In this document: positions 2,065 through 17,745 of the stretch, piece by piece
Layout: each line of letters starts with the position of its first letter
Position numbering within the stretch: position 1 is the stretch's first letter
DNA from: Candidatus Doudnabacteria bacterium RIFCSPHIGHO2_02_FULL_42_25
GTDB taxonomy: Bacteria; Patescibacteriota; Doudnabacteria; UBA920; O2-02-FULL-48-8
DNA length: 64,000 nt
Assembly (NCBI GenBank): GCA_001777665.1
Contig: MFEQ01000006.1
Location: 213,442 to 277,441 of the forward strand
Direction of reading: 5' to 3'
Position numbers and translations under genes: made by a program
The notes under the pieces: generated by a model
Database searches by the model: none
What the model saw: the letters and a program-made list of their open reading frames with translations, nothing else
What the model was told of the DNA's origin: nothing

Positions 2065-3735
2065 CTATTTAACTATTTCTTGCTTTTCTACTTTTTGATC
2101 TTTAGTCAGATCAAAGACGGAACTTGATAATTTCGAGTTTAGTGGGATGGTGAAGATAAAACTGGAACCCTTTCCTTCACCTTTTGATTCGACCCAAATT
2201 TTACCTTTATGTTGTGCGATAATAACTTTCGCGACATAAAGACCCAGGCCCAACCCTGTGGAATTTTTCGGTGCTCTGTTTCCTCGGTCATATTTCTCAA
2301 ACACATGACTCATCTGATCCTTGGAGACTCCCCGACCAGTATCAGTGACTTTCAGGGTAATTTCCTTATCGTTTTTCGATATCGAAACCGTGACCTTGCC
2401 AGCTGGGGTATATTTAATGGCATTATCAACTAAATTATTTATAACCTGCCGTAATTTTTCTTTATCAGCAGTGAGTTCAGGCATAGCTTCTTTAGGTTTT
2501 TCGTAGACTAATTCGATTTTCTTCATTTCAGCCTGGGGTAATAACTGATCCACAGTGATCTGGGTAATTTCAGCTAAGTTCGTAGGTTGAAATATAAATT
2601 CCAATTTTCCTCGTTCGATACGAGAGGCATTAAGTAAATCATCTATAAGGGCCACCATGGAATTATTCGTCATCATGGTTTTCCGTAACTGTTCATGAAC
2701 AGATGGATCCATCTTTCCATAATCACCATCGAGAATAGACGCCAGATACCACTTGATGGTTGCGGGTGGAGTTCGAAGTTGATGTGAAGCAATCGTAATA
2801 AAGTCCGCCCTCGCTTTATCCAAAATCTTCAACTTCTCATTCGCCGCCTCTAATTGTTTGTCCAAAATCTCAAGCTGTTGGCGCTGCTTAACTTCTCTAT
2901 TGACACCACGTACCAGAAGAATTCCGACTATCGAAGTTCCTATCAACACAAGAAAATTTGTTACATATTGCCCGACGGAAGTAGTGTTAACTAGTTGAAT
3001 AACGAGAATCAAATTCAACAAAATAACAGCCAGCTCAGCCAAGAGAGCTTTGATGTTTAATAATTTATGTCTAATCATTGCGTAAACTGTAAAAAGTACA
3101 AAAGGTAATGTATAAATATGGCCGAAATTAACATATTTGGTCTGATCGGTCACTACAGCAAGAATAAAATTAAAAGTTAATACAAGGACAAAGGTTAAAA
3201 ACAAACCTATTCCGATGAGCCTCCACTGAATTCGCTCTATCCCCTTTGCAAAATGCCAAGATTTAACTATATGAACAAAAGCTAAAATTATAAAAGTAAA
3301 TGCATAGATCCCGAACAGAGCCATTCCAATTCCTGCGATGGGTGTGATTATGCCATTTTTAACTTCCGTATGAGTAAATAAAAACGGCGATCTTGCTAGC
3401 AAAACAAAAATACCTACTAAAATAACTAAACTCCAAGAATAACTTCTACTGATTATATCTTTTTTATTCAAGAAAGAATGAATAAAAAGAAAAAATAGTA
3501 TTGGATGCGGTACCGCAGCGGCAATTGTCCATCGTGCCATACTTAGAATAGTATCCGGGTTACTACGTGCCGCAAAATAGTTAACCATTATCCAAATCGT
3601 CTGTGATAGTCCAAACAAAATAAATAATAACCTGCTTCGATCTTTCGGTGCATAACGGAACACAATCAATACCAAAGTAACATTGGCAATCAATGCTGTT
3701 ACAAATACAGGAAATTCTAATTCTACTAGATTCAT
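2065..3735 (-). CDS. sensor histidine kinase with N-terminal 7TM domain
   Basis: About seven N-terminal TM helices. HisKA H-box IASHQLRTPPATIKW. HATPase_c motifs NLVDNAIKYT, DTGRGV and GLGLGLYVAK. A 4-bp overlap with the upstream gene indicates an operon. Confidence 0.85.
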   Translation of the reverse strand: MNLVELEFPVFVTALIANVTLVLIVFRYAPKDRSRLLFILFGLSQTIWIMVNYFAARSNPDTILSMARWTIAAAVPHPILFFLFIHSFLNKKDIISRSYSWSLVILVGIFVLLARSPFLFTHTEVKNGIITPIAGIGMALFGIYAFTFIILAFVHIVKSWHFAKGIERIQWRLIGIGLFLTFVLVLTFNFILAVVTDQTKYVNFGHIYTLPFVLFTVYAMIRHKLLNIKALLAELAVILLNLILVIQLVNTTSVGQYVTNFLVLIGTSIVGILLVRGVNREVKQRQQLEILDKQLEAANEKLKILDKARADFITIASHQLRTPPATIKWYLASILDGDYGKMDPSVHEQLRKTMMTNNSMVALIDDLLNASRIERGKLEFIFQPTNLAEITQITVDQLLPQAEMKKIELVYEKPKEAMPELTADKEKLRQVINNLVDNAIKYTPAGKVTVSISKNDKEITLKVTDTGRGVSKDQMSHVFEKYDRGNRAPKNSTGLGLGLYVAKVIIAQHKGKIWVESKGEGKGSSFIFTIPLNSKLSSSVFDLTKDQKVEKQEIVK

Positions 3736-4793
3736 ATATTGCCGATTATTACTGGTGATCTTTTAATTGACCCGGCTGATGGTGGGTCAGCATAGCCAAG
3801 TCGAAAAATCATTATAGGGATCTCATCCGAAGACAGAGAAAAAATTTGACGAATCTTATTTTCGGCGTTTTTGATTAAATCCATCTGTTTGGGCAAAAAT
3901 TCGCTCGTATCTCCACCGTTTATTCGCTGGGCTAAAAATAAAATTGCCGCCACTGGCTGCATACTTAAACCAAGTCCAGTGCCAGTCAACCAAACTCTTT
4001 GAAAAAACCTACCAGCTAATATAAGCTGATCTTCACTAAGCCCAGCTGTTGCGATAATTCCGTAAGCCGGGGTAGATGCATAGAGCTTTGCAGAATCTTT
4101 GGAAACCATTTTTGACACGCCGAAATGATTCAAAAAATTAATTATTTGCCAATTTCTAAAAAGTTTAAAAGCCTTTTCTTGAAGTGGAGCTAATTCTAGA
4201 GTCTTAATATACATTCCATTTTTGGTTTTATCTTCATCTGTTTTTGACCATCGGATATATTTAAATAATCCATCATGAATTTTTTTATTTTCAAGTATAA
4301 GTCTCTCATTTAGATTTAGTGTACTACTTAACGCTTTTATTGCTACCGGGTCTTCCAAAATAAAATATTTTTTTATATTGTTTTCTCTCGGTACATTCAA
4401 TAAAATATTTAAATCCTCAGGCGGAATGGACTTACTTAGATATGGCTTCCGGTTGGTCACCCGTAGTGGAATTTGCTTTGCTTGGTTACTATCTCTTTTA
4501 TCACTAGGCAAGAACGTTACCTCGGCAATCAGTCCCGAAATGTTTTCTTCGGGGAATAATTTTATGGCAGTTTCAAAACCTGTAACGCCTGCTAAAATTT
4601 TAATATTTTCTATTAGTGCACCAATCCCTATATAAGAGCCTCTTTCTTCAAAGTTATAAAAGCTATCGTCAGCACCAAAAACGATATAGACAAAAACTCC
4701 ATTATCTTTCAATTTGAACTTCCATGGTTGAGAATTATCACCGGAAGGGGCCAACACAGCTTGATTTAATATTTGTTTTATAATTTCTCTCAT
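3732..4793 (-). CDS. nitroreductase-superfamily protein with duplicated domain (SagB/Acg-like)
   Basis: N-terminal APSGDNSQPW motif typical of nitroreductase/SagB-type FMN enzymes. The approx 350-aa length is consistent with a tandem nitroreductase fold. Confidence 0.65.
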   Translation of the reverse strand: MREIIKQILNQAVLAPSGDNSQPWKFKLKDNGVFVYIVFGADDSFYNFEERGSYIGIGALIENIKILAGVTGFETAIKLFPEENISGLIAEVTFLPSDKRDSNQAKQIPLRVTNRKPYLSKSIPPEDLNILLNVPRENNIKKYFILEDPVAIKALSSTLNLNERLILENKKIHDGLFKYIRWSKTDEDKTKNGMYIKTLELAPLQEKAFKLFRNWQIINFLNHFGVSKMVSKDSAKLYASTPAYGIIATAGLSEDQLILAGRFFQRVWLTGTGLGLSMQPVAAILFLAQRINGGDTSEFLPKQMDLIKNAENKIRQIFSLSSDEIPIMIFRLGYADPPSAGSIKRSPVIIGNI

Positions 4794-4794
4794 T

Positions 4795-6231
4795 TTATGT
4801 AAGAACCATCCTGGCTTTTTTGCCCTTCGTATTTAATAATCCAGCAATTTTTCCTGTTTCAGCTAATCTACCATATGGTTCTAGTTTTACTTGGGGTTGC
4901 GCCTTGGTACCGATTGCAGAATATAGTTTCCGATATTCGATACTTAATTCACTCAATTTTGAAGAAATAGTATCGACAATTAAATTTAACATTCTTGGAT
5001 TCGCTTTAGTTTTCTCTGCCAACTCCAGTTTTAGGTGGAGCTTTTGATTTTTTTGATTTTTTGAATTTTGATTATAAGCCAAATAATTACCAGTTAAATA
5101 TTTCGAAATCTTTCTATCTTCAAGACTTGTTTGTAAATTTTCAGGATAAACGTTTATTGCATAAAAAGTCACAGCGACATCAGTACGACCTTTTTTTACA
5201 AAAAAAGGCATCTTCCAAAATTGGAGGCCGTGTTCCTTGGCCTTATTAAGCAAACCTAGCTTTTTAAGTTTGTCTTGCATTTCATTATAAGGAATAATAG
5301 CCCCTTGATCATGAATATTGTATCTAATTAATGGGATGCTGGTTTTTGTTGTAATCAACAACTCATCATTCACTACTTCGAAATATGTAAGATATGGATC
5401 GTATTGCATCAAAGCCGGCTCGACTACTTCTTGCTCAAAAACTTGTTTATACAAAGCTGGGTTCTTCAGAGCTTCTTCACGGATATAAATACTGATTGGG
5501 GTTTCATGTCCTAACGCCCCGGTGTCCGCAGAACCATAGATACTTATAATATTTTTTTTAGAATTGATTCCGAGTAAATCAAGTAGACTCCGACGCCATT
5601 CTTCCGTAAATTTATCCCCCGCCGTAATGACAAAAGTATTTTTAGAAAACTTTATTTTTGCCTTCCTTGCATCATTGACTATGTCCATAACAAATGGAGG
5701 ATAACCTGCAATTACTATGTTTTTGAAATGAGGTCCGAGTATTCGCAAAGAATTAATTATATCGATTTTTTCAATTCCTGGTGTAATTGTGGATAAATTA
5801 AATCCTTTTCTAGAAAGATTTCTGCAACAAGCCAGAGTATAATTGCCTGCCACCCAAAGTCCCATAGCAAAACAAATAACTACCAAGGTCGAATCGTCTT
5901 TTTTTATCCTAAAAATATCAGTAAAAATCTTTTCATGAAATTTTCCCCCAATCTTCTCTTGATCATCACCACGGAACCAGAAAGTCGGCTTGCCGGATGA
6001 ACCTGAACTAGCGTAAATCATTGGAGCAATTTTATCTTTAGAAAAAAAACGATTAAAAGGATATTGATAAAGATAATTTTTCTTTTCCATTATCGGAACC
6101 TGCTCAAATTCTCTATGACTTTTCACCTTTGAGGGATTGAAATGATGGCGAGAAATAAAATCTTTGTAAGACGGTACCTCTTTGGCAGCATCTCTAAAAA
6201 TTCTTATTGCATTTTTTAATCCTTGTCTCAT
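4795..6231 (-). CDS. adenylate-forming enzyme, phenylacetate-CoA ligase (PaaK/CapK/F390 synthetase) family
   Basis: AMP-binding P-loop-like SSGSSGKPT. Length and overall architecture fit the PaaK family. Packed tightly between neighbours. Confidence 0.7.
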   Translation of the reverse strand: MRQGLKNAIRIFRDAAKEVPSYKDFISRHHFNPSKVKSHREFEQVPIMEKKNYLYQYPFNRFFSKDKIAPMIYASSGSSGKPTFWFRGDDQEKIGGKFHEKIFTDIFRIKKDDSTLVVICFAMGLWVAGNYTLACCRNLSRKGFNLSTITPGIEKIDIINSLRILGPHFKNIVIAGYPPFVMDIVNDARKAKIKFSKNTFVITAGDKFTEEWRRSLLDLLGINSKKNIISIYGSADTGALGHETPISIYIREEALKNPALYKQVFEQEVVEPALMQYDPYLTYFEVVNDELLITTKTSIPLIRYNIHDQGAIIPYNEMQDKLKKLGLLNKAKEHGLQFWKMPFFVKKGRTDVAVTFYAINVYPENLQTSLEDRKISKYLTGNYLAYNQNSKNQKNQKLHLKLELAEKTKANPRMLNLIVDTISSKLSELSIEYRKLYSAIGTKAQPQVKLEPYGRLAETGKIAGLLNTKGKKARMVLT

Positions 6232-6234
6232 TTG

Positions 6235-7323
6235 TTATTTAAATTGAGATCTGAATAGTTCTGTTTTTTGTTTCCTAACTTCTCGATTCTTTTCATTATT
6301 ATAATCTGGTATTAATTTCTCCTCGAGACTTATTTGATATCGCCCAGATGGCATGATTTGATGATTGGCAATCTTTCGTACGACGTATCCTACAGCAGCA
6401 CCTGCGACATTTGCGGTTGAACCAAGTTGCGGCACGGCCGAAATACTCTTACCTATTTCAGAAACAGATTCCTGCATACTCTCACTTAAAAATTCAGGAC
6501 CAACAATTTTAGTTGCTAGTTTCAACCATGAGTGAAAATCAAGTTTTGTTACCTGTTCTAGGGTAATATCCACCAAACCATGGAAGATCGGACGCTCGGG
6601 CTCCAAATCGAATCTTTCCACATCGAGTATAACACCGTCACCGTTATCCGTAGCCATAAGTACAGGAATTTTTCTATTTTTGCAATAAAACCGTGCCAAT
6701 ATCTTTAAATCGATGCTATCCATCTCATCAATAAAAACTTCAATTTTCGGATTACCTAGAAATTCTAGTAGGTTATCTTTGGTTAAACCCTTACTGTAAA
6801 CATTTAATTCTGCGAAAGGATCAAGTTCCCAAATCCAGTCTGCTGCGATTTCTGTTTTATTGCGCCCCAAATCAAGCAAATTTGAATTTATTCTGTTTAA
6901 ATTCGTAAATTCTAAATTATCATAATCAGCAATGCTCATGGTCTTTGGACCACCAGTCCTAACCAAGGCATTTATAATCGATGAGCCGACCGAAAGACCT
7001 GCAACACCAACTTTAATATTTCGAAAATTTGTCTGTTCCTCAGAAGTAATAACTAATTTATTTCGAGCAGTTCTTAACTGAAAATAATAGTCTTCAGGTA
7101 AAATGTGTATAGCTTTTTTATGATCGGAATAATACACCCAAATTCCCTGTATTTTATTCTCCGTTAAAAAATTATCTAAAGCGTCTTGGTATCCTGAATA
7201 GCTTTTTTTGTATTGAGGATTTTGAACAAAAAATAATTCTTCCAATCCAGATGAAAAAACATCGATTATTTCTGCATCTTTTGGAACTTCTGATCTACTA
7301 TTGTAAAATTTCGGTTGCCCCAT
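6235..7323 (-). CDS. ThiF/MoeB/HesA-family E1-like protein
   Basis: Rossmann motif VGVAGLSVGSSIINAL after an approx 100-aa N-terminal domain. E1-like size. Confidence 0.65.
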   Translation of the reverse strand: MGQPKFYNSRSEVPKDAEIIDVFSSGLEELFFVQNPQYKKSYSGYQDALDNFLTENKIQGIWVYYSDHKKAIHILPEDYYFQLRTARNKLVITSEEQTNFRNIKVGVAGLSVGSSIINALVRTGGPKTMSIADYDNLEFTNLNRINSNLLDLGRNKTEIAADWIWELDPFAELNVYSKGLTKDNLLEFLGNPKIEVFIDEMDSIDLKILARFYCKNRKIPVLMATDNGDGVILDVERFDLEPERPIFHGLVDITLEQVTKLDFHSWLKLATKIVGPEFLSESMQESVSEIGKSISAVPQLGSTANVAGAAVGYVVRKIANHQIMPSGRYQISLEEKLIPDYNNEKNREVRKQKTELFRSQFK

Positions 7324-7337
7324 CGGCCTTTTAGAAT

Positions 7338-8885
7338 TTATCCATTAGCGAAGCTTTTAAAATATTCAACCAACGCAGAAAGTTCTTTTGTTAGTGAACG
7401 GTCTTCGATAACTGTCGCTACTTTCTCGCGAACTTTATTGTACATTTCGTGCGTCGATTTCGCTAGCTTTTCTTGAAATTGCAAAAAATCAACTGCTTGA
7501 GCTAAAGTTACAGCTTCAATAGTAGTAACTATATAAGTGTTTTCCACTACTTTATCCAATATCAACGAGGCATCGGTACCCATGCTCACAACATCTTGAT
7601 TATCGGCGTTTGTCGGAATAGAATGAATGCTATGGGGAAAAGCATAGGACTGATTTTGGGCGGTAGTTGAAGTAGCGACAAATTGTAATCCTTGAAGTGC
7701 TAAGGTTAACCCAGGCTTATTTAGGTTAAGAAACGGCGGGAAAAATTTGTTTATGCTTTGGTTCATAAAGAAATTTATCCGTCTTTCGGAAAGAATCGAA
7801 AGTTTAACCAGAGACATTTTTATCTGATCAACGGTAACAGCTATGTAGTCCCCATGAAAATTCCCTCCATGTAAAAATTCTTTGTGCTCCCTGTCTAGAA
7901 CCGGATTATCCGTCACCGAATTGATTTCAATTTCTATAACTTGAAGGCTATTTGTAACTGTCTCCAAAATCGGACCAAGTATTTGGGGAGTACAACGGAA
8001 AGAGTAAACTTCTTGTACGAAATCAGAAATCTGGTGAACAGTATCAGTAATCTTATTATTCCTATTCAAACTGTCTCGTTTTCGTAAAAGCTGACTTGTT
8101 TCAAGTAGTTCTCGTAAACTTTTGGCTATCTCTATTTGTCCAGGGTGAGGACGAAGGTTATGCAATTCTTTCGAGATTCCGTCATTGTAAGCTTGTATCA
8201 ATTCTAAAGATAGTGCGCTGTTTTTAATTTCTATGTTTAACAAATTTTTTGCGTGCATCCATAGTATCGATGCGATTCCAGACATCACAGAGGTTCCATT
8301 GATTAAGGCCAGACCTTCTTTCGGTTTTAATTTATACGGCTCTATTCCTAATTCCTTAATCACATCTATAGCTTGTCGACGTTTACCTTTATAATCAACT
8401 TCCCCTTCTCCGATTATGGCTAATGCAATATGCGCCAATTGCACTAAGTCACCACTGGTGCCCACCGCGCCGTGAGTTGGAATAACTGGTGCAATTCTCT
8501 CATTTAAGTAAAGTACTAGTCTTTCGATTAATTCGACTGAAACGCAGGAATATCCCTTTGATAGAGTATTAAGTCGCACTAACATAGCGGCAAATACAAA
8601 ATCTTGTCTTAAAGGTTCACCCATTCCAGTAGCGTGGCTACGAATCAAATTTGTCTGTAAATCTATGAGCTGTTCCTTGCCGATTAAATATGAAGCCATT
8701 GGACCCAATCCAGTATTGACGCCGTAAATTACTGTGTCCCTCAGTTTACTAGCCAAAAACTCATAAGAACTTTTAATTGAAGCGAATACAGACTTCGATA
8801 GCTTAACTTTTACAGTACTGTCTGTCACAAATCTAAATATATCCACAGCTCGTAATCCCTCGCCGTTTATTTCAAGACTATTCAT
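7338..8885 (-). CDS. aromatic amino acid ammonia-lyase/aminomutase (HAL/PAL family, MIO-dependent)
   Basis: GVNTGLG and GTSGDL(V)QLAHIA motifs, with TSG in the position of the MIO-forming ASG triad. 515 aa. Confidence 0.8.
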   Translation of the reverse strand: MNSLEINGEGLRAVDIFRFVTDSTVKVKLSKSVFASIKSSYEFLASKLRDTVIYGVNTGLGPMASYLIGKEQLIDLQTNLIRSHATGMGEPLRQDFVFAAMLVRLNTLSKGYSCVSVELIERLVLYLNERIAPVIPTHGAVGTSGDLVQLAHIALAIIGEGEVDYKGKRRQAIDVIKELGIEPYKLKPKEGLALINGTSVMSGIASILWMHAKNLLNIEIKNSALSLELIQAYNDGISKELHNLRPHPGQIEIAKSLRELLETSQLLRKRDSLNRNNKITDTVHQISDFVQEVYSFRCTPQILGPILETVTNSLQVIEIEINSVTDNPVLDREHKEFLHGGNFHGDYIAVTVDQIKMSLVKLSILSERRINFFMNQSINKFFPPFLNLNKPGLTLALQGLQFVATSTTAQNQSYAFPHSIHSIPTNADNQDVVSMGTDASLILDKVVENTYIVTTIEAVTLAQAVDFLQFQEKLAKSTHEMYNKVREKVATVIEDRSLTKELSALVEYFKSFANG

Positions 8886-8937
8886 ATTTTACTTATTTAT
8901 ATTGAATTTACCTTCTTATTATACTGATTATCAATAA

Positions 8938-8982
8938 ATAAATCAAATTAAAACACCCTCCGAAAAATGATAACTGGAGGGT
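8938..8982 (-). terminator. rho-independent terminator after the RHS-immunity unit
   Basis: Stem ACCCTCC/GGAGGGT with a U-rich tract on the minus strand. Confidence 0.5.
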
Positions 8983-9088
8983 AAAAAACAATTAGGACTA
9001 CTAAATTTCTTAGCTTATTTTGAAAAATAATCCATAATTAATGCAACTAACATCCACGAAAATAAAATTGTACCCGTTGCTTTTTTGT

Positions 9089-9448
9089 TCATTTAATTCG
9101 CCAATAATAAAGTTTTGTTAGGTCTTCTGGATAGGAATCTCCATAATCTAATCCTGGTTTCTTAACTTCGAAATTATCACGTTCTGTGAGCTGTCTCCAA
9201 GTTGAATCCATTTTATATTTTTTTGGACTAGCCTTAAAGAGCAATCTCATTAGAATATTGTAAGTACTATATCCAATTCTAGCAAAGTTCTTCTGAGCTT
9301 GAATCAAGCTAACATTATTAGCGCCCAATGTGCTAGGAAATCTAAGTTGCCCTTCGTCATCTTCCCATCCACAAACTGAACAAGTGTCGTACGACCCTGG
9401 GGGATTATTGAAAGTTAAATAACCACACGCTGGACAAGTATATTGCAT
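9089..9448 (-). CDS. CPCC-family cysteine-rich protein
   Basis: N-terminal CPACGY...CSVCGWEDD motif characteristic of the Cys_rich_CPCC family. Confidence 0.55.
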   Translation of the reverse strand: MQYTCPACGYLTFNNPPGSYDTCSVCGWEDDEGQLRFPSTLGANNVSLIQAQKNFARIGYSTYNILMRLLFKASPKKYKMDSTWRQLTERDNFEVKKPGLDYGDSYPEDLTKLYYWRIK

Positions 9449-9464
9449 GTTTATTTTTTATTCG

Positions 9465-9887
9465 CTAGTCCAGAGACAAAGCTCTTGTCTCTCTAGACTT
9501 CTCTACCAAATAAGATCTCGATAAATAGATGGCAAATATTGCCCACCAAACTAAAATAAACGGATTTGGTACTTGTGAAATTTGATAAGCTTTATCCAAG
9601 GTTATTATTACTAAAGCAATAATCATTGCTGCTTTTTTACCTTTGAAGATAAAATACGCTAAAGGTAAATAAATAACCAAAGCCAAACCAGCTGTCATAA
9701 CATCTATCGAACCTCTTAGAAATCCTATCAATGTAATAATTAATGAAAGTATTAACAAGATAACCGAAATTCCTCTATAGGACTGCCTAAACTTCAGGTC
9801 ATTATACTTATCGACTTGGATTCTAATCTCATCTTCACTTAGCCTAAGCAATCCCACCTTGTTTTTCTTTTCTGTAATGTTGCTCAT
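9465..9887 (-). CDS. small integral membrane protein, hypothetical
   Basis: 140 aa with 3-4 predicted TM helices. Lies in the RHS downstream unit. Confidence 0.45.
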   Translation of the reverse strand: MSNITEKKNKVGLLRLSEDEIRIQVDKYNDLKFRQSYRGISVILLILSLIITLIGFLRGSIDVMTAGLALVIYLPLAYFIFKGKKAAMIIALVIITLDKAYQISQVPNPFILVWWAIFAIYLSRSYLVEKSRETRALSLD

Positions 9888-9898
9888 ATTGTTCTACC

Positions 9899-10228
9899 TC
9901 AGTTGCTTTGAATAAATAAATTTCTTAATTCATCAAGAAGTTTTTTTACATCCTCTTTTGAGACTCCGTCGTATAAAGCTTCAAAGTCTCCATTTTCGTA
10001 ATAGAGAAGTTCTAACGCATTTATCACAACTTCCAATTTTTTTATTGGGATACTACTATTATTTTTCTCAAAATCATTCAGAGCAGATCCGAATTCTTTT
10101 TCAGTTGCAACAAATTTAATTTTATTGGGTTTATATGGGTAACCCCGGGCATCGATCAAACTCTTAGCAATTATGTATGATTCATCCTTAGCAAAACCAA
10201 GTACTATATTATTTTTTAATTCAATCAT
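9899..10228 (-). CDS. hypothetical protein, candidate cognate immunity protein of the RHS toxin
   Basis: 109-aa ORF starting 5 bp after the RHS stop. This is the canonical position for an immunity gene (inference). Confidence 0.4.
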   Translation of the reverse strand: MIELKNNIVLGFAKDESYIIAKSLIDARGYPYKPNKIKFVATEKEFGSALNDFEKNNSSIPIKKLEVVINALELLYYENGDFEALYDGVSKEDVKKLLDELRNLFIQSN

Positions 10229-10232
10229 ATTA

Positions 10233-13200
10233 TTATCTGTTAATATCTTTCTTTATGGTATCTTTTAAATACTCCAATCCATTTTTCGGCTGAAATAATG
10301 TTGGTTGTTTCGGATTATTTATAAACAAGTTATTGTTCTTAGAATCATAATAATACTTCTTAATACCCTTAATATTAACCTTAATATCAAAGCTTTCGAA
10401 CGTTTTTTTAGCGATATTAGATATTTCTTGTTTAGACAGTCCTGGGTAATGATTTTTAATTATGGCATGCTCTGCTGCTCTATCGAATGCACTGGTTTTT
10501 GTAGTTGAACGTAAAGGAACAATTACAGAACTCTTACTCTTGGTATCAAGAACTTTATCTAAAGTTCTTATAAGATTATTTATTTCTTTAGCACGACCGG
10601 TTGTGGCAACCTTTGTTGCAGCAACTCCAGCACCCATAGTGTAAATAGTGCCTGCCGTCATCCCAATTTCTAGAGAGGTTGCAATAACGTTTGCAGTTGT
10701 TAATGTTGTGTCCTTTACTCCTCTACCGACTCGTCCCCAATCGCCGTCGAAAAGTCCTTCGGCTATATCATCAAATGATTCGCCGTACAAATAATGAACG
10801 GGATTATACTTATCCAGGAAATTAACGGCGTTAACCAAACTCCTCGGTAAATGACCGTCAGGATCTATGTAAGCAAGCGGGTTATTCCTCGCATAACTGT
10901 AGCTATTCAGTAGTTGTGGGTCACTCAAAACTTCAATCTGACCTGAACCTAGCCCTATAAATACTGGATCCTGGCTGATGAACCTACCAATACTACTATT
11001 GTAATACCTGGCGTTCATATATGACAACCCCGTATCCACGTCATACTCATGCCCAGCAAATTTTCGCTGCTCACTAAAGGTTCCCTGTTTCTGATCCAAT
11101 CTAATTCCACCGAATGGAAAATAATCCATTAACTCTTCTTGCAGACCGGTATTATTGGTCACAACATTTGATCCAGTTAAATGATCAGTATGTACAGAAT
11201 ATACTGAAGCACTGGCGCCAACTCCTTTGACGGTTGCAACTGTTTGAGTAGTCGGAGACACTATGTGTTTAGTAGGTACTGTGCCATCTGTGTTGTAAAA
11301 ACCGGTGGGATAATCAGTACTGATGCTACCATTCGATGATCTTACTCTTTGCCCCTCGTGGTCATAAGCATAATTTATGGTTGTTTGATTTGCATATGTA
11401 ACTTCAAGAACAGGATCGAAAGCAGTGCCGCTGTATTCAGAAGATCTTAGAGTCAACTGGTTGCCGCCTTTTCCACCAGTATAAGAACTGTTAATTACAT
11501 CGTGTCCTTCTCTTAGAGCTAGTAATGTATTACCAGTTTTCGAAATCCATCCCTTTCCCGTATTGTTCAAATTAAGCGTCAAGTAGGCGTTCGTACTGAC
11601 ATTAGTTATATCTTTGCGTTCTGAAGTATCTATGCCTTCAGTTGGATTAGTTATGGCTCCCGCGTTATCATAGTCATTTAAAACTAGACTAGTTGGGCTG
11701 GCTTGAGAGCCTTGCACTACCGTTACCCAATCATCACCATCGTTATCAGGATTGGTTTTACCATGCACATATACTTTCAATTTTGCATCGACTATGGAGG
11801 TGTTATCTGGTAAAGCAGAAGTATTGAAAGCCAGAAAGGCTCTTTCAATTCGATAAGTACTGTTATTTGTTTTTCCAGCCTGAACAGGCATGGTGGTGGA
11901 AGTATAACTTTGGCCTGAACCACTAGTAGCGTCATGAACACCACTCCAAGTGGAATAATTTTTATAAACATTACCATCACCCGATTGAACAGAAAATGTA
12001 GTCGTAGTGTTCGAACCGCCAGCTAACGATGCTTGGATCAAGCGGTTGTTATAATCGTAGACATAATTCTTATTACCTTCAGTTATCATATTCCCGTTGC
12101 TGTCATAACTAAAAGTTGTTGTGTTTGTTCCGTCACTAATACTTGTCACTGCATGGGGATTGGCATATCTGGAACCAGAGCTGCCATCATATGCATACGT
12201 ATAAATAGTTGTAGGATTAATTCCGATTGTTTCGGCACGAGTTAAAATATTACCAATGGCATCATAGGAGTACGTTTGACCATAAGTCGATTGGCCGGCC
12301 GCGACATTCGTTGCTGCGGTTGACATCAGTCGATTTAGATCATCATAAGTATAATCAACTGTCTTACTGGAGTTAGTATCAGAACCATCAACAATTCGGG
12401 TTATATTTCCATTAGGGTCATATGTATAACTAAGATTTTGCAACTTCAAACCATTAGCAGCTGTCGTGTTTTTATTAGTTAAACGATACAGTTTTGTAGA
12501 ATCATAAATGTTTGATGTAACTGGACCATTTGCGTAAGCTTGATAAGTAACTTGACCGTGTGGACCATAGTCCAGATCGCTCACTACATTTACAAACGAA
12601 CCGTCTGTAGCTTCTTTCCTTTTGATGGTTTCTAATTGGCCGCCTTGATTGTATGCATATTTTATTTTAGAATTATCTGGATTGGTAACTTCCAACAAAT
12701 TTCCTTGACGGTCATAGTTATAATCAGTTTGATAACTTGTTGAACTGATAGTTTTTGCTTCTTGTTTCAGTCCGCCCAAAGGATTATATAGATAATCAGT
12801 ATTTGCTCCCGAGGACTGCACTGAAGTTAGTCTACCAATTCCATCAATACCAGAATCGTAATTATACGTAACTTCTGTTCCTGCTTGGCCAATATAGTTT
12901 TCAGTTAGTCTTCGGTTGATATCGTCATATGTGTACTCGACTTGCTGATTGTTTGGGTTTGTACTTGAGATAAGATTGCTCGAATCATCGTAAATATAGC
13001 TCCATAGACCGAAGGTTGTGTCAGTAGGATTATGTAAATCTTCTGATCCTATGCGACGGCCTAACCCATCATAGCTAAAATTGCGAATGTTACCCGAAGC
13101 ATCAGTTATCTTGGTGAGGTTACCTAAATAATTATAATCATAATGAGTGGTATAAGTATTTCCGGAATTAAATTCTTCAACCTTTACCAAATTCCCGTAT

Positions 13201-16200
13201 GCATCTTTATACAGATTTTTGATCTTGCCTTTTGGATCAATTACGGTAAATTTCTGATCATTGTAAATATTACTTGAAGTACCTACCGCATTCGTAACAC
13301 TAACCACTCTTTGCATCGGATCATAGGTGTGCAGAGTTAAAAGGTTAGGGTTTGTATTAACTGATGTTTTACTAAACCCATTTGAAAAGTATGGCAAAGA
13401 TTGTTTATAAACCTGTCCGAGGTTGTTATAAACCGTATCAGCGACGGAGTAAACATTGTTATCTTCTGTCTCTTTCCTGATTTGCACAGGTCTATTCAAA
13501 CCATCATAGTAGGTATAAGTATCGACAGCGTTAGAATTGTCTAAATAATCAGTTTTCTTCGAACTCACGGCACCCGGAGTATCAGTATATACATACTCTG
13601 TTTTCACTACTATGGTTTGCGGATCAGTTAAATCCGGCTGTTTCTCGGCAATGACGCGATCCAGGCCATCATAAACAGATTGAAACACTCGAGAATTAAT
13701 ATCAGTAATCTGCTTGGGTTTGCCTAATGAGTAATCGTAGACATACGAGGTGCTTTGGTTTAAAGCATTCGTAACTGTTGCTGGATAAAGATTATTTGTA
13801 TCGTAAACATAACTGGTGGCTTTACCTCGCGGATCAATATCAGTAGTTATTAATCCAAATGTTGGATCATAATTTTTTTGAATACTTACATAACTCGAAC
13901 CTGCTTTCCAATTTTCCTGTTGAGTGAGATTCCCCCTAGAATCATAGCTGTACTTAGTTTCCTTGACCTTATTCGAACTTTGGTCAACTGTGGTTTCTTG
14001 ACTTGGGTACGCATAAATGTAGTACGTTGCATTAGCGACATAAGAAAAGTCCGTTGTAAATTTATCAGTTCCTGTATCGGTATATGCTCCATCATCGCTG
14101 CCAGTAACTTCTCCCCATTCTATCTTTTGACTCAGATTGCCAGTGGTGTTGCTGTAAGTATATTCTTCTGTCTTGTCTTTGTGATCCGCATCACCATCGT
14201 AAGTAAGTTCTGTGGTTCTTACAAGTTTAACAAAATTCCTACTATTACCAAGATCATATTTATCCCATTTGTTGACTGTTTTAAGATAAATATTACTGCT
14301 TCCGTCTTTCATTTCTGATCTGTATAGTTTACCAACTTTGGAGATGTGATCACTATATTCACCATTACTACTATCAGTAGTGTTACCTTGATGGTAATAC
14401 GTTTTAGTGACTTGACCAGCCGCATTAGTTTTATTGATTATATTAAATCCGGCAAATTGTCTATCAAATGAAGTGTTAAAGTAATAACTGCCGCTCTCAT
14501 AACTATATGAAGTTGTGTAAGTGGAATTTACTTTGTCGTCGTTAGTAAGTTGATAGACAGTGTCTAAATTAATTCTTGCACTCGGATTTAATAGAGTTGA
14601 GCCACTAACATACCTAGCACTGGCTTTGTAAATAACAGCTGTCGTTCCAGCACTTGGATATGTAATTTTATTTGTAAGGTCAGCTTTGTTTCTATTATTA
14701 AATCTCGTGCTGCTCACAACACCATTACTACTATAAGCGCGGATGAGATCAACCATCCCATCAGCGTTTATATCCACTGCTTGAGTGCCGGTCTCTCCGT
14801 TACTACTGGTGACAAATTCCTCAACAGCGCCCCAATTAGTTCCTGTTTGCGTCCATCCATAACCGTTGTTATAGTAGCTTACTGGCGTCCCACCGCCAAT
14901 AAATTTTGATAAATCTATCAATCCATCACCATTGAAATCAAATGGACGTACTCCTTCATCAACATTGCTTCTAAATACCATTGGTGGAGCCCAAGAAGTA
15001 TTATTTGAAGTCCAACCTGCACCATTACCCAGATACGCTTCTTTGTACTGAGTTTGTCCATTTTGCCATCCACGCAACAAATCGGCTAATCCATCATTAT
15101 TGATATCTATAATAAATACACCTAATTTCAAATCAACTGGCACTATCCAATTTACCGAAGTCCAACCTGCACCATTATTAAGATATACATCGTCAACAAT
15201 AGTGCCATTATTATCATAACCTCTAATTACATCCACTAGTCCGTCACCATTTAAATCAGCCAATTGTGACGTGTATGAATCACCCGAGGATGAAGGACCA
15301 AAGGGTATCGGTGAATACCAAGTGGAATTATCTGCTGACCAGCCACTTCCAGTATTTAAATATGCTTTATTGACACCAACTGTGGCCTGCAGAATATCAT
15401 TAAGTCCGTCTCCGTTCACGTCAGCTATTCGAACACCCTGGTCTACTCCTGAACTATCAAAAAACTGAATTGGAGGTTGATAACTAGCACTTGTTGTCCA
15501 AGTACCATCTTGGTCGTTTAGATAGGCTGTTTTTGTGCTCCCATATGAATGGAGAATATCAGGGTAGGCATCACCATTAACATCAGCAATATATACTTCA
15601 CTGAAAGGGACTGGATACGTCCAATTAGTATCGTTAGAGTTATAGTTAGAGCTCCCATTATTGTTTGTTATTTGGTAATCAAAATCTGTTACAGGGAGTG
15701 AAACCGTGTTTGAACTTTCGTCTTGACCAGTTTCTGTAATAGTATTTAAGACATATCTTCGTCCATTATCTGCTGCTGTATATGCTAAAGCCCATTTCCT
15801 GGCCCAAGTATCACTAATTTTTGCTTGAATCTCATAAATTCTGTAGCTAGTAGTCACACTAAACCCAGGCTTATAACTAATTGTTGAATCTGATCTAGAT
15901 TCTTTTAAAAATTCGATGACAAAGATACCATCAGTTGAACCATTTCCTGTATATGTAATCTTGTATGGATAAATCTGGCCAGCATCCTTTGTATATTCGT
16001 ATTTGATATAGTTTTCATTTCTATCTCTAACTTCTTGAAGCATCCATTTGTAGATATTACTTCCGCTATCTTGTCTTTCCGCAGCATTTGTTCCAAATTT
16101 ATATGCAGTTCCTTTCTTATCTTTTACTGTCCAAACATTGTCAGTTAAATCATAGGTTAAAAATTCACCATTATCGACTTTGGAACCCCAAGATGAACCA

Positions 16201-16802
16201 CTAATTAAATAAAGTTCTCCCGTAAATGATGAATTGAAATAATTATCTGTATATAGCTTATCAGCTCCTTTGCGATTAATTCGTTCGATATACGGAATAT
16301 TTACAGACCAACCATAAGAAAATACACTTCCTTCATCGTTAGACTGACTGCTGTATACCAATGCAACATCTGGTTGAAGCCCGTTTCGGCCAGGAGGAAT
16401 AGTTAATGGGTATTGATAATTTAATGAACCATTCACTTCACTAACTTGTGGGAGTTTTTGGCCTGCAACAGTGTTCTTACCTGAGTCAGGACCAGGACTC
16501 GAGGCCAAAAGATTAGTTGCTTCAGGATCGGAATCTTTGCCTTTATCCTTATCTTTGATAGGTTTGGGATCTTTATTATTTTCTGAAAAATCTTTCTCAT
16601 CCTTAAGCTGCTTATCCTCATTAGTTTCTGATTTTTTATTTTGTTCGGGTTCTGGTTCCGAAGATATCTCAGATGCGGATTGATCTACTTCCTTAATGGG
16701 TTCAATCGGCAACTCGGATTCTGCAGCGAAAACGGGAGTAAAGGGCGTAATGAGAATAAAGAATGCCACCACTATCGCAACCAGACTTTTGGAGTTAGTC
16801 AT
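10233..16802 (-). CDS. RHS/YD-repeat polymorphic toxin (2189 aa) with signal peptide, FG-GAP-like DxNGDG repeats, YD repeats, RHS core and a variable C-terminal toxin domain
   Basis: Signal peptide MTNSKSLVAIVVAFFILITPF. Repeats DVNGDGLNDIL and DLNGDGLVDVI. Many YxYDxxGN(L/I) YD repeats. RHS core ...GRFISQDPVF...NPLAYIDPDGH, followed by an approx 205-aa tail. Confidence 0.85.
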   Translation of the reverse strand: MTNSKSLVAIVVAFFILITPFTPVFAAESELPIEPIKEVDQSASEISSEPEPEQNKKSETNEDKQLKDEKDFSENNKDPKPIKDKDKGKDSDPEATNLLASSPGPDSGKNTVAGQKLPQVSEVNGSLNYQYPLTIPPGRNGLQPDVALVYSSQSNDEGSVFSYGWSVNIPYIERINRKGADKLYTDNYFNSSFTGELYLISGSSWGSKVDNGEFLTYDLTDNVWTVKDKKGTAYKFGTNAAERQDSGSNIYKWMLQEVRDRNENYIKYEYTKDAGQIYPYKITYTGNGSTDGIFVIEFLKESRSDSTISYKPGFSVTTSYRIYEIQAKISDTWARKWALAYTAADNGRRYVLNTITETGQDESSNTVSLPVTDFDYQITNNNGSSNYNSNDTNWTYPVPFSEVYIADVNGDAYPDILHSYGSTKTAYLNDQDGTWTTSASYQPPIQFFDSSGVDQGVRIADVNGDGLNDILQATVGVNKAYLNTGSGWSADNSTWYSPIPFGPSSSGDSYTSQLADLNGDGLVDVIRGYDNNGTIVDDVYLNNGAGWTSVNWIVPVDLKLGVFIIDINNDGLADLLRGWQNGQTQYKEAYLGNGAGWTSNNTSWAPPMVFRSNVDEGVRPFDFNGDGLIDLSKFIGGGTPVSYYNNGYGWTQTGTNWGAVEEFVTSSNGETGTQAVDINADGMVDLIRAYSSNGVVSSTRFNNRNKADLTNKITYPSAGTTAVIYKASARYVSGSTLLNPSARINLDTVYQLTNDDKVNSTYTTSYSYESGSYYFNTSFDRQFAGFNIINKTNAAGQVTKTYYHQGNTTDSSNGEYSDHISKVGKLYRSEMKDGSSNIYLKTVNKWDKYDLGNSRNFVKLVRTTELTYDGDADHKDKTEEYTYSNTTGNLSQKIEWGEVTGSDDGAYTDTGTDKFTTDFSYVANATYYIYAYPSQETTVDQSSNKVKETKYSYDSRGNLTQQENWKAGSSYVSIQKNYDPTFGLITTDIDPRGKATSYVYDTNNLYPATVTNALNQSTSYVYDYSLGKPKQITDINSRVFQSVYDGLDRVIAEKQPDLTDPQTIVVKTEYVYTDTPGAVSSKKTDYLDNSNAVDTYTYYDGLNRPVQIRKETEDNNVYSVADTVYNNLGQVYKQSLPYFSNGFSKTSVNTNPNLLTLHTYDPMQRVVSVTNAVGTSSNIYNDQKFTVIDPKGKIKNLYKDAYGNLVKVEEFNSGNTYTTHYDYNYLGNLTKITDASGNIRNFSYDGLGRRIGSEDLHNPTDTTFGLWSYIYDDSSNLISSTNPNNQQVEYTYDDINRRLTENYIGQAGTEVTYNYDSGIDGIGRLTSVQSSGANTDYLYNPLGGLKQEAKTISSTSYQTDYNYDRQGNLLEVTNPDNSKIKYAYNQGGQLETIKRKEATDGSFVNVVSDLDYGPHGQVTYQAYANGPVTSNIYDSTKLYRLTNKNTTAANGLKLQNLSYTYDPNGNITRIVDGSDTNSSKTVDYTYDDLNRLMSTAATNVAAGQSTYGQTYSYDAIGNILTRAETIGINPTTIYTYAYDGSSGSRYANPHAVTSISDGTNTTTFSYDSNGNMITEGNKNYVYDYNNRLIQASLAGGSNTTTTFSVQSGDGNVYKNYSTWSGVHDATSGSGQSYTSTTMPVQAGKTNNSTYRIERAFLAFNTSALPDNTSIVDAKLKVYVHGKTNPDNDGDDWVTVVQGSQASPTSLVLNDYDNAGAITNPTEGIDTSERKDITNVSTNAYLTLNLNNTGKGWISKTGNTLLALREGHDVINSSYTGGKGGNQLTLRSSEYSGTAFDPVLEVTYANQTTINYAYDHEGQRVRSSNGSISTDYPTGFYNTDGTVPTKHIVSPTTQTVATVKGVGASASVYSVHTDHLTGSNVVTNNTGLQEELMDYFPFGGIRLDQKQGTFSEQRKFAGHEYDVDTGLSYMNARYYNSSIGRFISQDPVFIGLGSGQIEVLSDPQLLNSYSYARNNPLAYIDPDGHLPRSLVNAVNFLDKYNPVHYLYGESFDDIAEGLFDGDWGRVGRGVKDTTLTTANVIATSLEIGMTAGTIYTMGAGVAATKVATTGRAKEINNLIRTLDKVLDTKSKSSVIVPLRSTTKTSAFDRAAEHAIIKNHYPGLSKQEISNIAKKTFESFDIKVNIKGIKKYYYDSKNNNLFINNPKQPTLFQPKNGLEYLKDTIKKDINR
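10236..10852 (-). other. variable C-terminal toxin tip of the RHS protein (after the DPDGH motif), unknown family, glycine-zipper-like segment
   Basis: Sequence downstream of the PLAYIDPDGH cleavage/demarcation motif. Contains GMTAGTIYTMGAGVAATKVATTG. AT-richer than the body of the gene. Confidence 0.5.
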
Positions 16803-16822
16803 AAATAAAATATTAATTATGC

Positions 16823-16863
16823 ACTAACGCTAGCATTGATAGGATTGTTGTCAATATTTGACA
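16823..16863 (-). promoter_or_regulatory. conserved promoter-like element (TTGACA-N17-TAGCGT on minus strand) upstream of the RHS gene; second copy at 26988..27027
   Basis: A roughly 40-bp block with about 75% identity to 26988..27027. Both copies lie 20-45 bp upstream of the start codon of a giant secreted-protein gene. Confidence 0.5.
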
Positions 16864-16890
16864 GTAAAATCTATATAGTATAGATTGAAG

Positions 16891-16938
16891 AAATGCTAGC
16901 ATTTTTAATACTGTTGGAGGTCTCCAACACTAGCATTT
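16891..16938 (+). promoter_or_regulatory. palindromic operator-like region upstream of the trmB-family gene
   Basis: AATGCTAGCATT 12-bp palindrome, TGTTGGAG-GT-CTCCAACA inverted repeat and a second CTAGCATTT copy, all ending at the start codon. Confidence 0.4.
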
Positions 16939-17745
16939 ATGAATATGACTGATACTTTACTCAAACAACTAAAAGCCGGAGGGTTGTCTGAAAAAGAGGC
17001 CAAAATCTACCTAGCCCTACTGGAACTTGAGGTTGCTACCGTGTTCGAAGTAGCTAAAACTTCAGGAGTTAATCGCAGTTCAGCTTACGTCGTACTCGAA
17101 GGACTAAAAAAGAAGGGTCTGGTGGGGATTTCTGATGACCAAAAAGTGCGCAAGTATATTGCAGCATCCCCCGATACTCTTCTTCATTCAGCCAAATCAG
17201 CTGCAAAAAAACAAGAGGATATAAAGTCAGGGATCGAATCCATAATCCCAGAACTTCGAGCATTACACAAAGCAACAAAAAGAAGACCTATCGTCAAAGT
17301 CTTTGAAGGTGAAAATGGTGCAAAAGAAGTATATTGGCAACTGTTCTCATCAACTGACAAAATACTAAGAACTTATGCCAATCCAATTAACATTTTTAAA
17401 CGTATTCCGGACTTTGAAATTCATGATAAAGAAAGGGCAAAAAGAGGCATTAAAATGTTTGCTATAAATCCAGCATCAAACGAAACTCTTAAATTCCTCA
17501 AAGATATACGGCCTCATAAACCTTACGAGCAAGCACTGATTCCAGAAAACAAATTTAGATTTACATCAGATATGGGAATATTCGGAGATAAAATTGCTTT
17601 AGTCTCTCCTGTAGATAATTTTGGGATTATTATTGAAAGTAAGGAAATTGCGGACATGCTTAAAAATAGTTTCGATTTGGCTTGGGAGGAAGCCAAACGA
17701 TTAGATAAAATAATACGAAAAAAATACAAAATACCTAAAGACTAA
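16939..17745 (+). CDS. TrmB-family transcriptional regulator
   Basis: N-terminal wHTH LSEKEAKIYLALLELEVATVFEVAKTSGVNRSSAYVVLEGLKKKGLV typical of TrmB. Approx 270 aa with a C-terminal effector domain. Confidence 0.65.
   Translation: MNMTDTLLKQLKAGGLSEKEAKIYLALLELEVATVFEVAKTSGVNRSSAYVVLEGLKKKGLVGISDDQKVRKYIAASPDTLLHSAKSAAKKQEDIKSGIESIIPELRALHKATKRRPIVKVFEGENGAKEVYWQLFSSTDKILRTYANPINIFKRIPDFEIHDKERAKRGIKMFAINPASNETLKFLKDIRPHKPYEQALIPENKFRFTSDMGIFGDKIALVSPVDNFGIIIESKEIADMLKNSFDLAWEEAKRLDKIIRKKYKIPKD

Follow-up and report, generated by a model that had tools for sequence, protein, structure and literature searches.

A Doudnabacteria operon resembling a variant oxazolone pathway joined to a 7TM sensor histidine kinase

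The DNA considered here, called the window throughout, is a stretch of 64,000 nucleotides from Candidatus Doudnabacteria bacterium RIFCSPHIGHO2_02_FULL_42_25 (assembly GCA_001777665.1, contig MFEQ01000006.1, positions 213,442 to 277,441), in which five minus-strand genes form a compact operon encoding a 4-methylideneimidazole-5-one (MIO) lyase, a ThiF-like E1 protein, a PaaK-fold ligase, an Acg/FDO-type flavoenzyme of the nitroreductase superfamily, and a sensor histidine kinase with seven transmembrane (7TM) helices. The evidence leans, by a modest measure, toward a variant of the oxazolone (azlactone)/N-acyl-dehydroamino-acid pathway that comes with a two-component sensor of its own. At its core, the E1 and the flavoenzyme very probably form, to judge from their homologies, a cyclase/desaturase pair like TrzS that takes an N-acyl amino acid as substrate. 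Furthermore, oxazolone-synthetase-type enzymes are linked to two-component systems in two phyla, including cultured Bacteroidota. In the databases, the five products are all labeled "hypothetical protein" by NCBI, and their UniRef labels are generic (histidine ammonia-lyase, THIF-type, phenylacetate-CoA ligase, nitroreductase domain, and histidine kinase).

Results

The E1 and the flavoenzyme resemble a split TrzS-type synthetase

Rv1355c of Mycobacterium tuberculosis is TrzS, and by sequence the E1 and the flavoenzyme of the window appear to be a split form of the ThiF-cyclase/flavin-oxidase of the TrzS (Rv1355c), OxzB, and TyzB/TyzC type. Pfam recognizes a ThiF domain in the E1 (E 2e-17), and the Rv1355c-family model NF005901 matches it at 288 bits (E 1e-85, model positions 36–348 of 722), compared with at most 67 bits for each of the other E1 models (ThiF, MoeB, TcdA, and SAMP-E1). 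With the ThiF half of a plasmid-borne Rv1355c-family fusion from Rhodococcus the protein shares 38% identity (E 2e-61), and its first 60 residues have no counterpart in that fusion. The flavoenzyme, where Pfam detects an N-terminal motif only, matches the C-terminal half of the same model (183 bits, E 6e-54, positions 375–713 of 722) as well as PRK14851 (202 bits, model positions 326–662 of 679) and the Acg family (138 bits; best PDB match Acg, 2YMV), and over its full length it can be aligned with the C-terminal half of the Rhodococcus protein (20% identity, E 4e-18). The preliminary description of this DNA, made from the letters alone, had called it a duplicated nitroreductase; BLASTP reveals no internal duplication, and that label rests on the Acg-type single-chain family.

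The residues expected of both activities are largely in place. The GxxGxxG-type nucleotide loop, D133/D135, NLNR144, K156, and D199 of the E1 are invariant across 24 orthologues, D199 being a residue of the same kind as the adenylation-motif Asp that was mutated in TrzS as D217A (PMC12856293). In the flavoenzyme the SxxNxQPW and RxxxR motifs are kept, with S17, N20, Q22, P23, W24, R111, and R115 conserved in 52 orthologues. The operon thus holds a ThiF-like cyclase from the clade of TrzS, OxzB, and TyzB, its adenylation site intact, and, one gene away, an Acg/FDO-type flavoenzyme. Enzymes of the TrzS type are oxazolone synthetases of free N-acyl amino acids, which cyclize and desaturate N-acyl Trp/Tyr (PMC12856293, PMC10404671); the split pair TyzB/TyzC carries out the same reaction on N-acyl-tyrosine (PMC10404671), and OxzB performs the same chemistry in Pseudoalteromonas (bioRxiv 10.1101/2020.06.11.147165).

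The AlphaFold2 (AF2) model of the E1 (predicted local distance difference test score, pLDDT, 92) has the E1 fold, which is also common to MccB and PaaA. By sequence, its nearest solved relatives include TcdA, an enzyme that closes an oxazolone ring on tRNA t6A (PMC12596934). The closest solved protein in both structure and sequence is AclA from Tenacibaculum discolor (PDB 9egb/9egc, a 2025 entry entitled "AclA in complex with substrate"), whose substrate could bear on peptide activity within this E1 clade. As a sulfur-carrier enzyme of the ThiF/MoeB kind, the protein was rejected: it reaches at most 57 bits with models whose cut-offs start at 152 (57 bits for a ThiF cut-off of 159, 32 bits for a MoeB cut-off of 266), no partner gene accompanies it, and its single Cys is not conserved across the 24 orthologues.

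From the company of an E1-like and a SagB-like protein, the preliminary description had proposed an azoline-forming or RiPP-like (peptide synthesized ribosomally and modified post-translationally) system. The E1 would then activate a peptide C terminus, the nitroreductase would be of the SagB/McbC kind, and the ligase would add an aryl cap. Such a system, or a related modification of protein C termini, could draw on the fold shared with the peptide-acting MccB and PaaA, on the top structural match to AclA (9egb), and on the 60 N-terminal residues without counterpart in the actinobacterial fusion. We nevertheless regard it as improbable, given the wide margin by which the TrzS family outscores any other E1 family and the lack of a conserved Cys, and that proposal gives way to the TrzS-type assignment of both proteins. 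The gene content points the same way. The preliminary description had rightly seen neither YcaO nor a precursor peptide: no YcaO (by Pfam), RRE-type (RiPP recognition element), or ThiS/MoaD-type gene lies in the operon or within 10 kb of it, no plausible small open reading frame (ORF) is found in the 203-bp leader, the intergenic gaps are too short for a precursor gene, and the 80 related loci described below hold no conserved family of small ORFs.

A FlxA-like lyase and a divergent PaaK-fold ligase form the front end

The lyase is a full-length MIO enzyme (Pfam Lyase_aromatic, PF00221, E 1e-156), with a Thr-Ser-Gly MIO triad that is kept in the orthologues. Among NCBIfam models the FlxA tyrosine ammonia-lyase (TAL) scores best, with 610 bits for a cut-off of 700, and HutH (456 bits for a cut-off of 539) and the aminomutases come well behind; the FlxA score is below its cut-off and the gene context is not that of an aryl polyene. 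The protein is 44% identical to a Persicobacter lyase from a flexirubin/aryl-polyene-type cluster and 33% identical to a Klebsiella HutH that adjoins hutU. Alignment with the hutU-linked HutH places DNQDV where histidine ammonia-lyases (HAL) have NQEDH, the Glu of which is the imidazole-binding residue at position 414 of Pseudomonas putida HAL. One insertion is common to the window lyase and an FlxA-like protein and is missing from HutH. The Ser-His selectivity pair is non-discriminating, as it is common to the window lyase, HutH, the tyrosine aminomutase SgTAM, and the FlxA-like protein. The best call from these comparisons is an FlxA-like, tyrosine-type ammonia-lyase with tyrosine as the predicted substrate. 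HutH itself was considered and rejected on the grounds of its sub-cut-off score, the missing HAL-specific Glu, and the absence of hutU nearby.

The ligase has no Pfam match, and its NCBIfam matches are weak and all below cut-off (PaaK TIGR02155, 48 bits for a cut-off of 646; F390 synthetase, 31 bits; FlxY, 19 bits); compared with the sequence of the PaaK2 structure it gives E 2e-6. Its AF2 model (pLDDT 83) clearly has the PaaK fold according to Foldseek, the top matches being BT_0428, PaaK1/2, NatL2, AjiA1, and 2-hydroxyisobutyryl-CoA ligase (HCL), followed by amide-bond synthetases including McbA. The adenylation motifs SSGSSGKP, YGSAD, and GRTD are invariant in 78 homologues. On the strength of the model, this protein is a predicted distant PaaK-fold adenylate-forming enzyme, and the earlier designation "PaaK-family" applies to the fold only. 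A housekeeping PaaK was rejected, the fold alone being in common and no paa genes lying nearby. One PaaK-type enzyme, NatL2, couples an aryl-adenylate to a second small molecule without coenzyme A (CoA) (PMC7204872).

Where the oxazolone pathway would have an adjacent GNAT or acyl-homoserine-lactone-synthase-like N-acyl amino acid synthase, the operon has none, and its five genes are all accounted for. Likewise, a phmmer search, which is of low sensitivity here, found no TrzA-like acyltransferase in the window or in the 80 related loci. The preliminary description had derived an activated cinnamoyl-, coumaroyl-, or urocanoyl-type acid from the lyase and the ligase. This remains the most plausible front end as far as an aryl-acrylic acid is concerned; the histidine-type lyase is dropped, since FlxA outscores HutH.

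These results also bear on the most ordinary explanation, in which a HutH, a PaaK, and a ThiF or MoeB serving catabolism or cofactor synthesis would be neighbors by chance. Apart from the UniRef names "Histidine ammonia-lyase," "Phenylacetate--CoA ligase," and "THIF-type," little speaks for it: all four equivalog cut-offs quoted above are widely missed, the HAL-specific Glu is absent, no hutU/hutI, paa, thi, or moa genes occur near the operon, and the set is co-conserved with the kinase. We consider this explanation effectively refuted. What the preliminary description had named as fatal to its own proposal, namely a housekeeping PaaK, a ThiF/MoeB with its pathway genes nearby, or a want of co-conservation in relatives, was looked for and in each case not encountered.

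The gene set recurs in shuffled order across Patescibacteria

Ligase homologues number 1303 matches; of the best 120, those that carry a name come almost exclusively from Patescibacteria. A ligase-first scan restricted to one genome per species gave 198 stretches, of which 80 loci were analyzed. They span Doudna-, Yanofsky-, Jorgensen-, Wildermuth-, Niyogi-, Nomura-, Magasanik-, Terry-, Andersen-, Lloyd-, Uhr-, and Berkelbacteria as well as Saccharibacteria, with a few bins labeled otherwise. Those ligase loci that lie outside the candidate phyla radiation (CPR), in Legionella, Saprospiraceae, and Chloroflexia bins, have no consistent gene context. For 38 loci with at least 5 kb on both sides of the ligase (full-flank loci), features within 7 kb of it were scored with family hidden Markov models (HMMs): the E1 is present in 33, the flavoenzyme in 29, the kinase in 32, and all three together in 29, and a stand-alone receiver in 14. 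The clustering of the module genes is far beyond chance.

The set recurs in at least five different orders across dozens of genomes, such as lyase-E1-ligase-flavoenzyme-kinase, E1-ligase-lyase-flavoenzyme-kinase, flavoenzyme-E1-(dehydrogenase)-ligase-kinase, and ligase-E1-flavoenzyme (reversed)-kinase, among others. The flanking genes differ as well, and one locus (L087) holds the same five genes among ribosomal-protein and recA genes. With gene orders and flanks so varied, the set is therefore maintained as a unit. The preliminary claim of a small-molecule module distinct from housekeeping enzymes is borne out on this count, too.

Within the module the ligase adjoins the E1 in nearly all loci, and the position of the lyase is variable. 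A lyase is found in 27 of the 80 loci, in two sequence classes that both have the MIO and Ser-His motifs; its alternatives beside the ligase are an ELFV-family (Trp/Leu/Phe-type) dehydrogenase in seven loci, with the tryptophan dehydrogenase ScyB as best match, and a class I/II aminotransferase in six. We infer that this variable slot supplies the carboxylic-acid substrate of the ligase, as would be expected because all three enzyme types convert an amino acid to an acid without the alpha-amino group.

A few loci also encode S-adenosylmethionine-dependent methyltransferases; methyltransferase, ThiF, and nitroreductase genes occur together in the stieleriacine clusters (PMC12479983). Two further families have no Pfam match. 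One, of 574 aa with an N-terminal Rossmann-like GxGxxG, is encoded upstream of the ligase (L050:6112–7836, L060, L064, and L065); the other, of 310 aa and possibly methyltransferase-like, lies between the enzymes and the kinase (L032:8453–9385, L034, L041, L067, L078, and L081). Moreover, a CPR subgroup (L037, L039, L042, L043, L045, L050, L053, L060, L066–L068, L075, and L081) has a longer kinase (~720–780 aa), a longer E1 (~410–420 aa), and the nitroreductase on the opposite strand, and also carries an aminotransferase or a divergently transcribed lyase. This architecture may make a different product.

Ligase and GNAT-like partner exclude each other beside the E1

Ascertainment through the ligase was avoided in a second, E1-first scan, for which metagenome contigs were searched with an E1 alignment and 80 loci were retained. 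Beside the E1, 37 of these have the ligase only and 25 have only a protein family of 228–241 aa; none has both, and the 18 with neither are mostly short contigs. Conversely, neither the window nor any of the ligase-ascertained loci (81) has a member of the 228-aa family. A histidine kinase stands beside the E1 in each of the 23 full-flank E1-first loci and a receiver in 19 of them.

Modules of the 228-aa type occur in Bacteroidota (Dyadobacter, Mucilaginibacter, Taibaiella, and Flavobacteriales). Dyadobacter sp. CY356 (GCA_021440195.1) has a tight operon (L168:4701–11345, 0–7 bp between genes) that encodes, in order, a ThiF-nitroreductase fusion of 766 aa, the 228-aa protein, a 7TMR-DISMED2/7TMR-DISM kinase, a receiver-kinase hybrid, and a receiver. 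Similar operons are found in L148 (7929–14574), where the orthologous fusion passes the Rv1355c-family equivalog cut-off (769 bits for a cut-off of 476), and in about 23 further loci among L124–L166. In a subgroup represented by L134, with a stand-alone E1, the flavoenzyme was not found, and no likeness to a nitroreductase was detected in the 382-aa protein encoded upstream.

Neither Pfam nor NCBIfam recognizes the 228-aa protein even at E 5, and BLASTP against the Rhodococcus TrzA-like protein returned nothing. Against PDB sequences its profile finds only two GNAT acetyltransferases, through motif A (the acetyl-CoA loop) and with non-significant E-values, and UniRef names one member of the family GNAT. 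Weak as these hints are, the protein is plausibly a GNAT-like acyltransferase partner of the E1.

The kinase is the constant companion of the module

The last product has the features of a two-component sensor histidine kinase with all catalytic boxes present. Pfam reports HisKA_7TM, HisKA (E 3e-8), and HATPase_c (E 2e-29), together with a weak 7TMR-DISM_7TM match. The H-box H318 and the N, G1, and G2 boxes (N434/N438, D465–G469, and G494–G498) are conserved, the transmembrane region is variable, and the seven helices come without an extracytoplasmic sensor domain. In the ligase-first survey, a kinase gene is near the ligase in 62 of the 80 loci, on the same strand in 61 of the 62 and mostly with almost no gap. 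Together with its presence beside every full-flank E1, this agrees with the view of the preliminary description that the kinase is part of the module and would suit a signaling role.

Stand-alone receiver genes accompany the module in 25 of the 80 ligase-first loci; the receiver proteins found there are single domains without DNA-binding output. Six loci have PilB (MshEN domain) and PilC genes after the kinase or the kinase and receiver, namely the source contig (L001:17006–20119, just past the left end of the window), L007, L008, L010, L011, and L052. The stand-alone receiver might act on pilus function, or the synteny might merely have been inherited within one subclade.

Layout and surroundings of the operon

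The coordinates of the operon and of neighboring features are collected in Table 1. The tight packing of the five genes reported earlier holds: the gaps from the lyase through the E1 and the ligase to the flavoenzyme are 14, 3, and 1 bp, and the flavoenzyme and kinase genes overlap by 4 bp. The leader 5' of the lyase gene contains the top minus-strand sigma-70-like match of the region, which is suggestive only, as matches of this kind are no more numerous there than expected from shuffled sequence. A terminator scan of the operon region likewise gave nothing above chance.

Table 1. Positions of the operon genes and of other features in the window
Feature	Position	Strand	Length or remark
MIO lyase gene	7338–8885	minus	515 aa
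ThiF-like E1 gene	6235–7323	minus	362 aa
PaaK-fold ligase gene	4795–6231	minus	478 aa
Acg/FDO-type nitroreductase-superfamily flavoenzyme gene	3732–4793	minus	353 aa
7TM sensor histidine kinase gene	2065–3735	minus	556 aa; conserved last gene of the module
Sigma-70-like promoter match, TTGATT-17-TATAAT	8918..8946	minus	10/12; in the leader
Gene 3' of the kinase gene	44–2008	minus	654 aa
Three small ORFs	9089–10228		109, 140, and 119 aa
Rhs/YD-repeat gene	10233–16802	minus	2189 aa
Low-GC block (module and Rhs region)	2065–17745		36.6% G+C
Rest of the window	18000–64000		45.6% G+C
tRNA-Gly	23226–23299
tRNA-Pro	24070–24143

Directly upstream of the operon lies a gene for a large Rhs/YD-repeat protein (SpvB, FG-GAP, RHS repeats, and a variable C-terminal region), followed by three small ORFs, the 119-aa one of which is a Cys_rich_CPCC protein. 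The whole has the look of a polymorphic toxin accompanied by immunity or orphan genes that came to be inserted beside the module; relatives often have a receiver gene at the upstream position that the Rhs region occupies here. Downstream, 56 bp 3' of the kinase gene and with no terminator-like site between, a 654-aa protein is encoded that has a sub-threshold OmpA-like match only and an Arg/Gly-rich C-terminal half. It is probably outside the module, even if co-transcribed, because it has no counterpart among the 80 related loci. The module and the Rhs region differ in G+C content from the rest of the window, with two tRNA genes a few kb past the low-GC block, which may have been acquired laterally as an island.

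Discussion

The pathway that we propose would begin with the FlxA-like lyase, which, from its family placement, would produce an aryl-acrylic acid by deaminating an aromatic amino acid, 4-coumarate from tyrosine being the most likely case. The acid would then be adenylated by the ligase, which would join it to another amino acid at the amino group, either directly as in NatL2 or through CoA, to yield an N-aroyl amino acid. From gene content and the mutually exclusive distribution, this step would replace the GNAT/NAS-type (N-acyl amino acid synthase) acyltransferase. Homology to TrzS, TyzB/TyzC, and OxzB suggests that the ThiF-like enzyme would next adenylate the amino-acid carboxylate and cyclize the molecule to an oxazol-5(4H)-one, and that the Acg-type flavoenzyme would add the C-alpha=C-beta double bond. 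The ligase would accordingly be a functional replacement of OxzA/TyzA/TrzA, and the acyl group an amino-acid-derived aryl acid, probably 4-coumarate in this operon. That the ligase feeds the E1 is argued for because it adjoins the E1 and excludes the GNAT-like partner of the same E1 family.

The same arrangement is what stands in the way of a different use of the front end, in which the lyase and the ligase would make an aryl-CoA or aryl-AMP for some other acceptor, such as a p-coumaroyl chromophore like that of photoactive yellow protein (PYP) or a signal resembling an aryl-homoserine lactone (HSL), the substrate of the E1 and the flavoenzyme being unrelated. A TAL paired with a ligase is a known route to the PYP chromophore and to p-coumaroyl-HSL, and the ligase has diverged too far to allow a substrate prediction. 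On the other hand, the kinase has no PAS/PYP domain, no LuxI-type gene is present, and if the ligase did not feed the E1 it would be hard to explain why the two are neighbors almost everywhere and why the ligase and the GNAT-like partner exclude each other. We judge this alternative unlikely, if a little less so than a RiPP system.

In the last step of the variant oxazolone pathway, the hydrophobic and hydrolysis-prone product, or its ring-opened N-acyl dehydroamino acid, would be the most likely membrane-soluble ligand of the kinase, as the conserved linkage suggests; the kinase would signal via a stand-alone receiver, encoded beside the module in many relatives and not in the window. That the kinase senses the product of the pathway is the least certain step, and we advance it tentatively. 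Nearly as credible is a scheme in which an oxazolone-type metabolite is made and the kinase and receiver answer an external cue (host contact, an aromatic amino acid, or stress), controlling its production or some different output, for instance type IV pili; the metabolite itself would then act as an antimicrobial, protect against stress, or serve as a membrane lipid-like compound. Indeed, N-acyl dehydrotyrosines are antimicrobial, antibiotics induce oxazolone production in proteobacteria (PMC12856293; bioRxiv 10.1101/2020.06.11.147165), and PilB/PilC genes follow the kinase and receiver in the six loci mentioned above, the source contig included. However, receivers without DNA-binding output argue against simple transcriptional control of the operon, and seven transmembrane helices with no extracytoplasmic sensor domain fit a membrane-soluble ligand.

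Several observations weigh against the pathway as proposed, or against its link to signaling. The scores of the E1 (288 bits) and the flavoenzyme (183 bits) are both below the Rv1355c equivalog cut-off of 476; such values are expected for half-proteins, yet they also reflect divergence, the flavoenzyme being merely 20% identical to the actinobacterial domain. An equivalent of TrzS Arg540 could not be mapped in the flavoenzyme, where the aligned Arg of an "IRW" motif is not conserved among orthologues. Fifteen of the 38 full-flank loci (~40%) have no recognizable deaminating enzyme, and a CoA-dependent route with an unlinked acyltransferase may operate instead. As the preliminary description had stated for response regulators, tblastn and a custom HMM detect no receiver domain anywhere in the 64-kb window, and linkage to a kinase is by itself no proof of product sensing. 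The counts are drawn from related genomes and are not phylogenetically independent. Finally, characterized flavoenzymes of this kind need O2, and CPR bacteria are usually regarded as anaerobic fermenters.

The module shares with OxzAB (Pseudoalteromonas rubra), TyzACB, and TrzAS a ThiF-like ATP-dependent cyclase and an Acg/FDO-type desaturase, fused or adjacent, in an operon with an enzyme that makes the N-acyl amino acid, a role proposed here for the ligase; the split arrangement of cyclase and desaturase is that of TyzB/TyzC. It departs from the known oxazolone pathway in having no acyltransferase and in adding a deaminase and PaaK-type ligase front end and a kinase. While OxzAB, TyzACB, and TrzAS use a GNAT/NAS-type acyltransferase that draws on acyl-CoA or acyl carrier protein (ACP) and attaches a fatty acid, the acyl group of the window operon is probably an amino-acid-derived aryl acid, and the module is constantly linked to a 7TM histidine kinase. 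The hosts differ as well (Proteobacteria, Actinomycetota, and Planctomycetota as against Patescibacteria), and protein identity is 38% for the E1 and 20% for the flavoenzyme. The stieleriacine clusters have methyltransferases in common with some relatives of the window (PMC12479983).

Other known systems resemble parts of the operon. The flexirubin/aryl-polyene starter module (FlxA and FlxY) likewise pairs a TAL-type lyase with a PaaK-fold ligase for the activation of 4-coumarate; unlike it, the window has no type II polyketide synthase or fatty acid synthase genes, both proteins fall below the FlxA/FlxY cut-offs, the MIO triad is TSG instead of ASG, and a ThiF-like protein and a flavoenzyme stand in place of polyene extension. 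The benzoxazole enzymes NatL2, BomJ, and AjiA1 have the PaaK fold and join an aryl-acid adenylate to a second small molecule without CoA before heterocycle formation. Their likeness to the ligase is at the level of the fold only (~16% identity), and NatL2, which is equipped with a Zn site and a C-terminal lock, links two 3-hydroxyanthranilates as an ester. The SagB/SagC/SagD systems of azoline-containing, thiazole/oxazole-modified microcins (TOMM) also bring together E1-superfamily and nitroreductase-superfamily proteins; the window has neither their YcaO nor their precursor peptide, and its E1 is of the TrzS clade, whose substrates are free N-acyl amino acids. Lastly, AgrBDCA, LuxM/LuxN, and CqsA/CqsS are signal synthases encoded with a polytopic membrane kinase that has no large periplasmic domain. 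The window is alike in logic only, with unrelated synthases and a stand-alone receiver.

A full-text literature search found no description of the ligase-type module, and the primary oxazolone papers (PMC12856293, PMC10404671, and bioRxiv 10.1101/2020.06.11.147165) make no mention of kinases, two-component systems, ligases, or Patescibacteria. What oxazolones do physiologically has been called "a major unresolved question," the signaling idea resting only on chemical resemblance and nearby cyclic di-GMP genes (PMC12856293).

It is conceivable, though we put it forward with reserve, that Patescibacteria and, in parallel form, Bacteroidota (Dyadobacter and Mucilaginibacter) use oxazolone-type N-acyl amino-acid derivatives as self-made signals read by dedicated 7TM kinases. 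The CPR bacteria, or Patescibacteria, represent a large share of bacterial diversity, have genomes of ~1 Mb, and are regarded as lacking the greater part of biosynthesis. That five conserved genes should be devoted to a specialized metabolite and a kinase is unexpected in them and points to chemical communication with hosts or kin. The constant linkage gives a candidate oxazolone receptor both for the CPR ligase-type modules and for the bona fide Rv1355c-family modules of Bacteroidota; Dyadobacter and Mucilaginibacter are culturable, so that the question is directly testable. The replacement of the acyltransferase by a ligase and a deaminase would add a new synthesis of N-acyl amino acids and probably new aryl-substituted oxazolones, the CPR version being, if the proposal is true, a CoA-independent, all-amino-acid route through a deaminase and a PaaK-type amide ligase. 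If true, it would also provide the first small-molecule autoinducer or host-sensing system in CPR bacteria and the first oxazolone receptor, and would answer what oxazolones are for.

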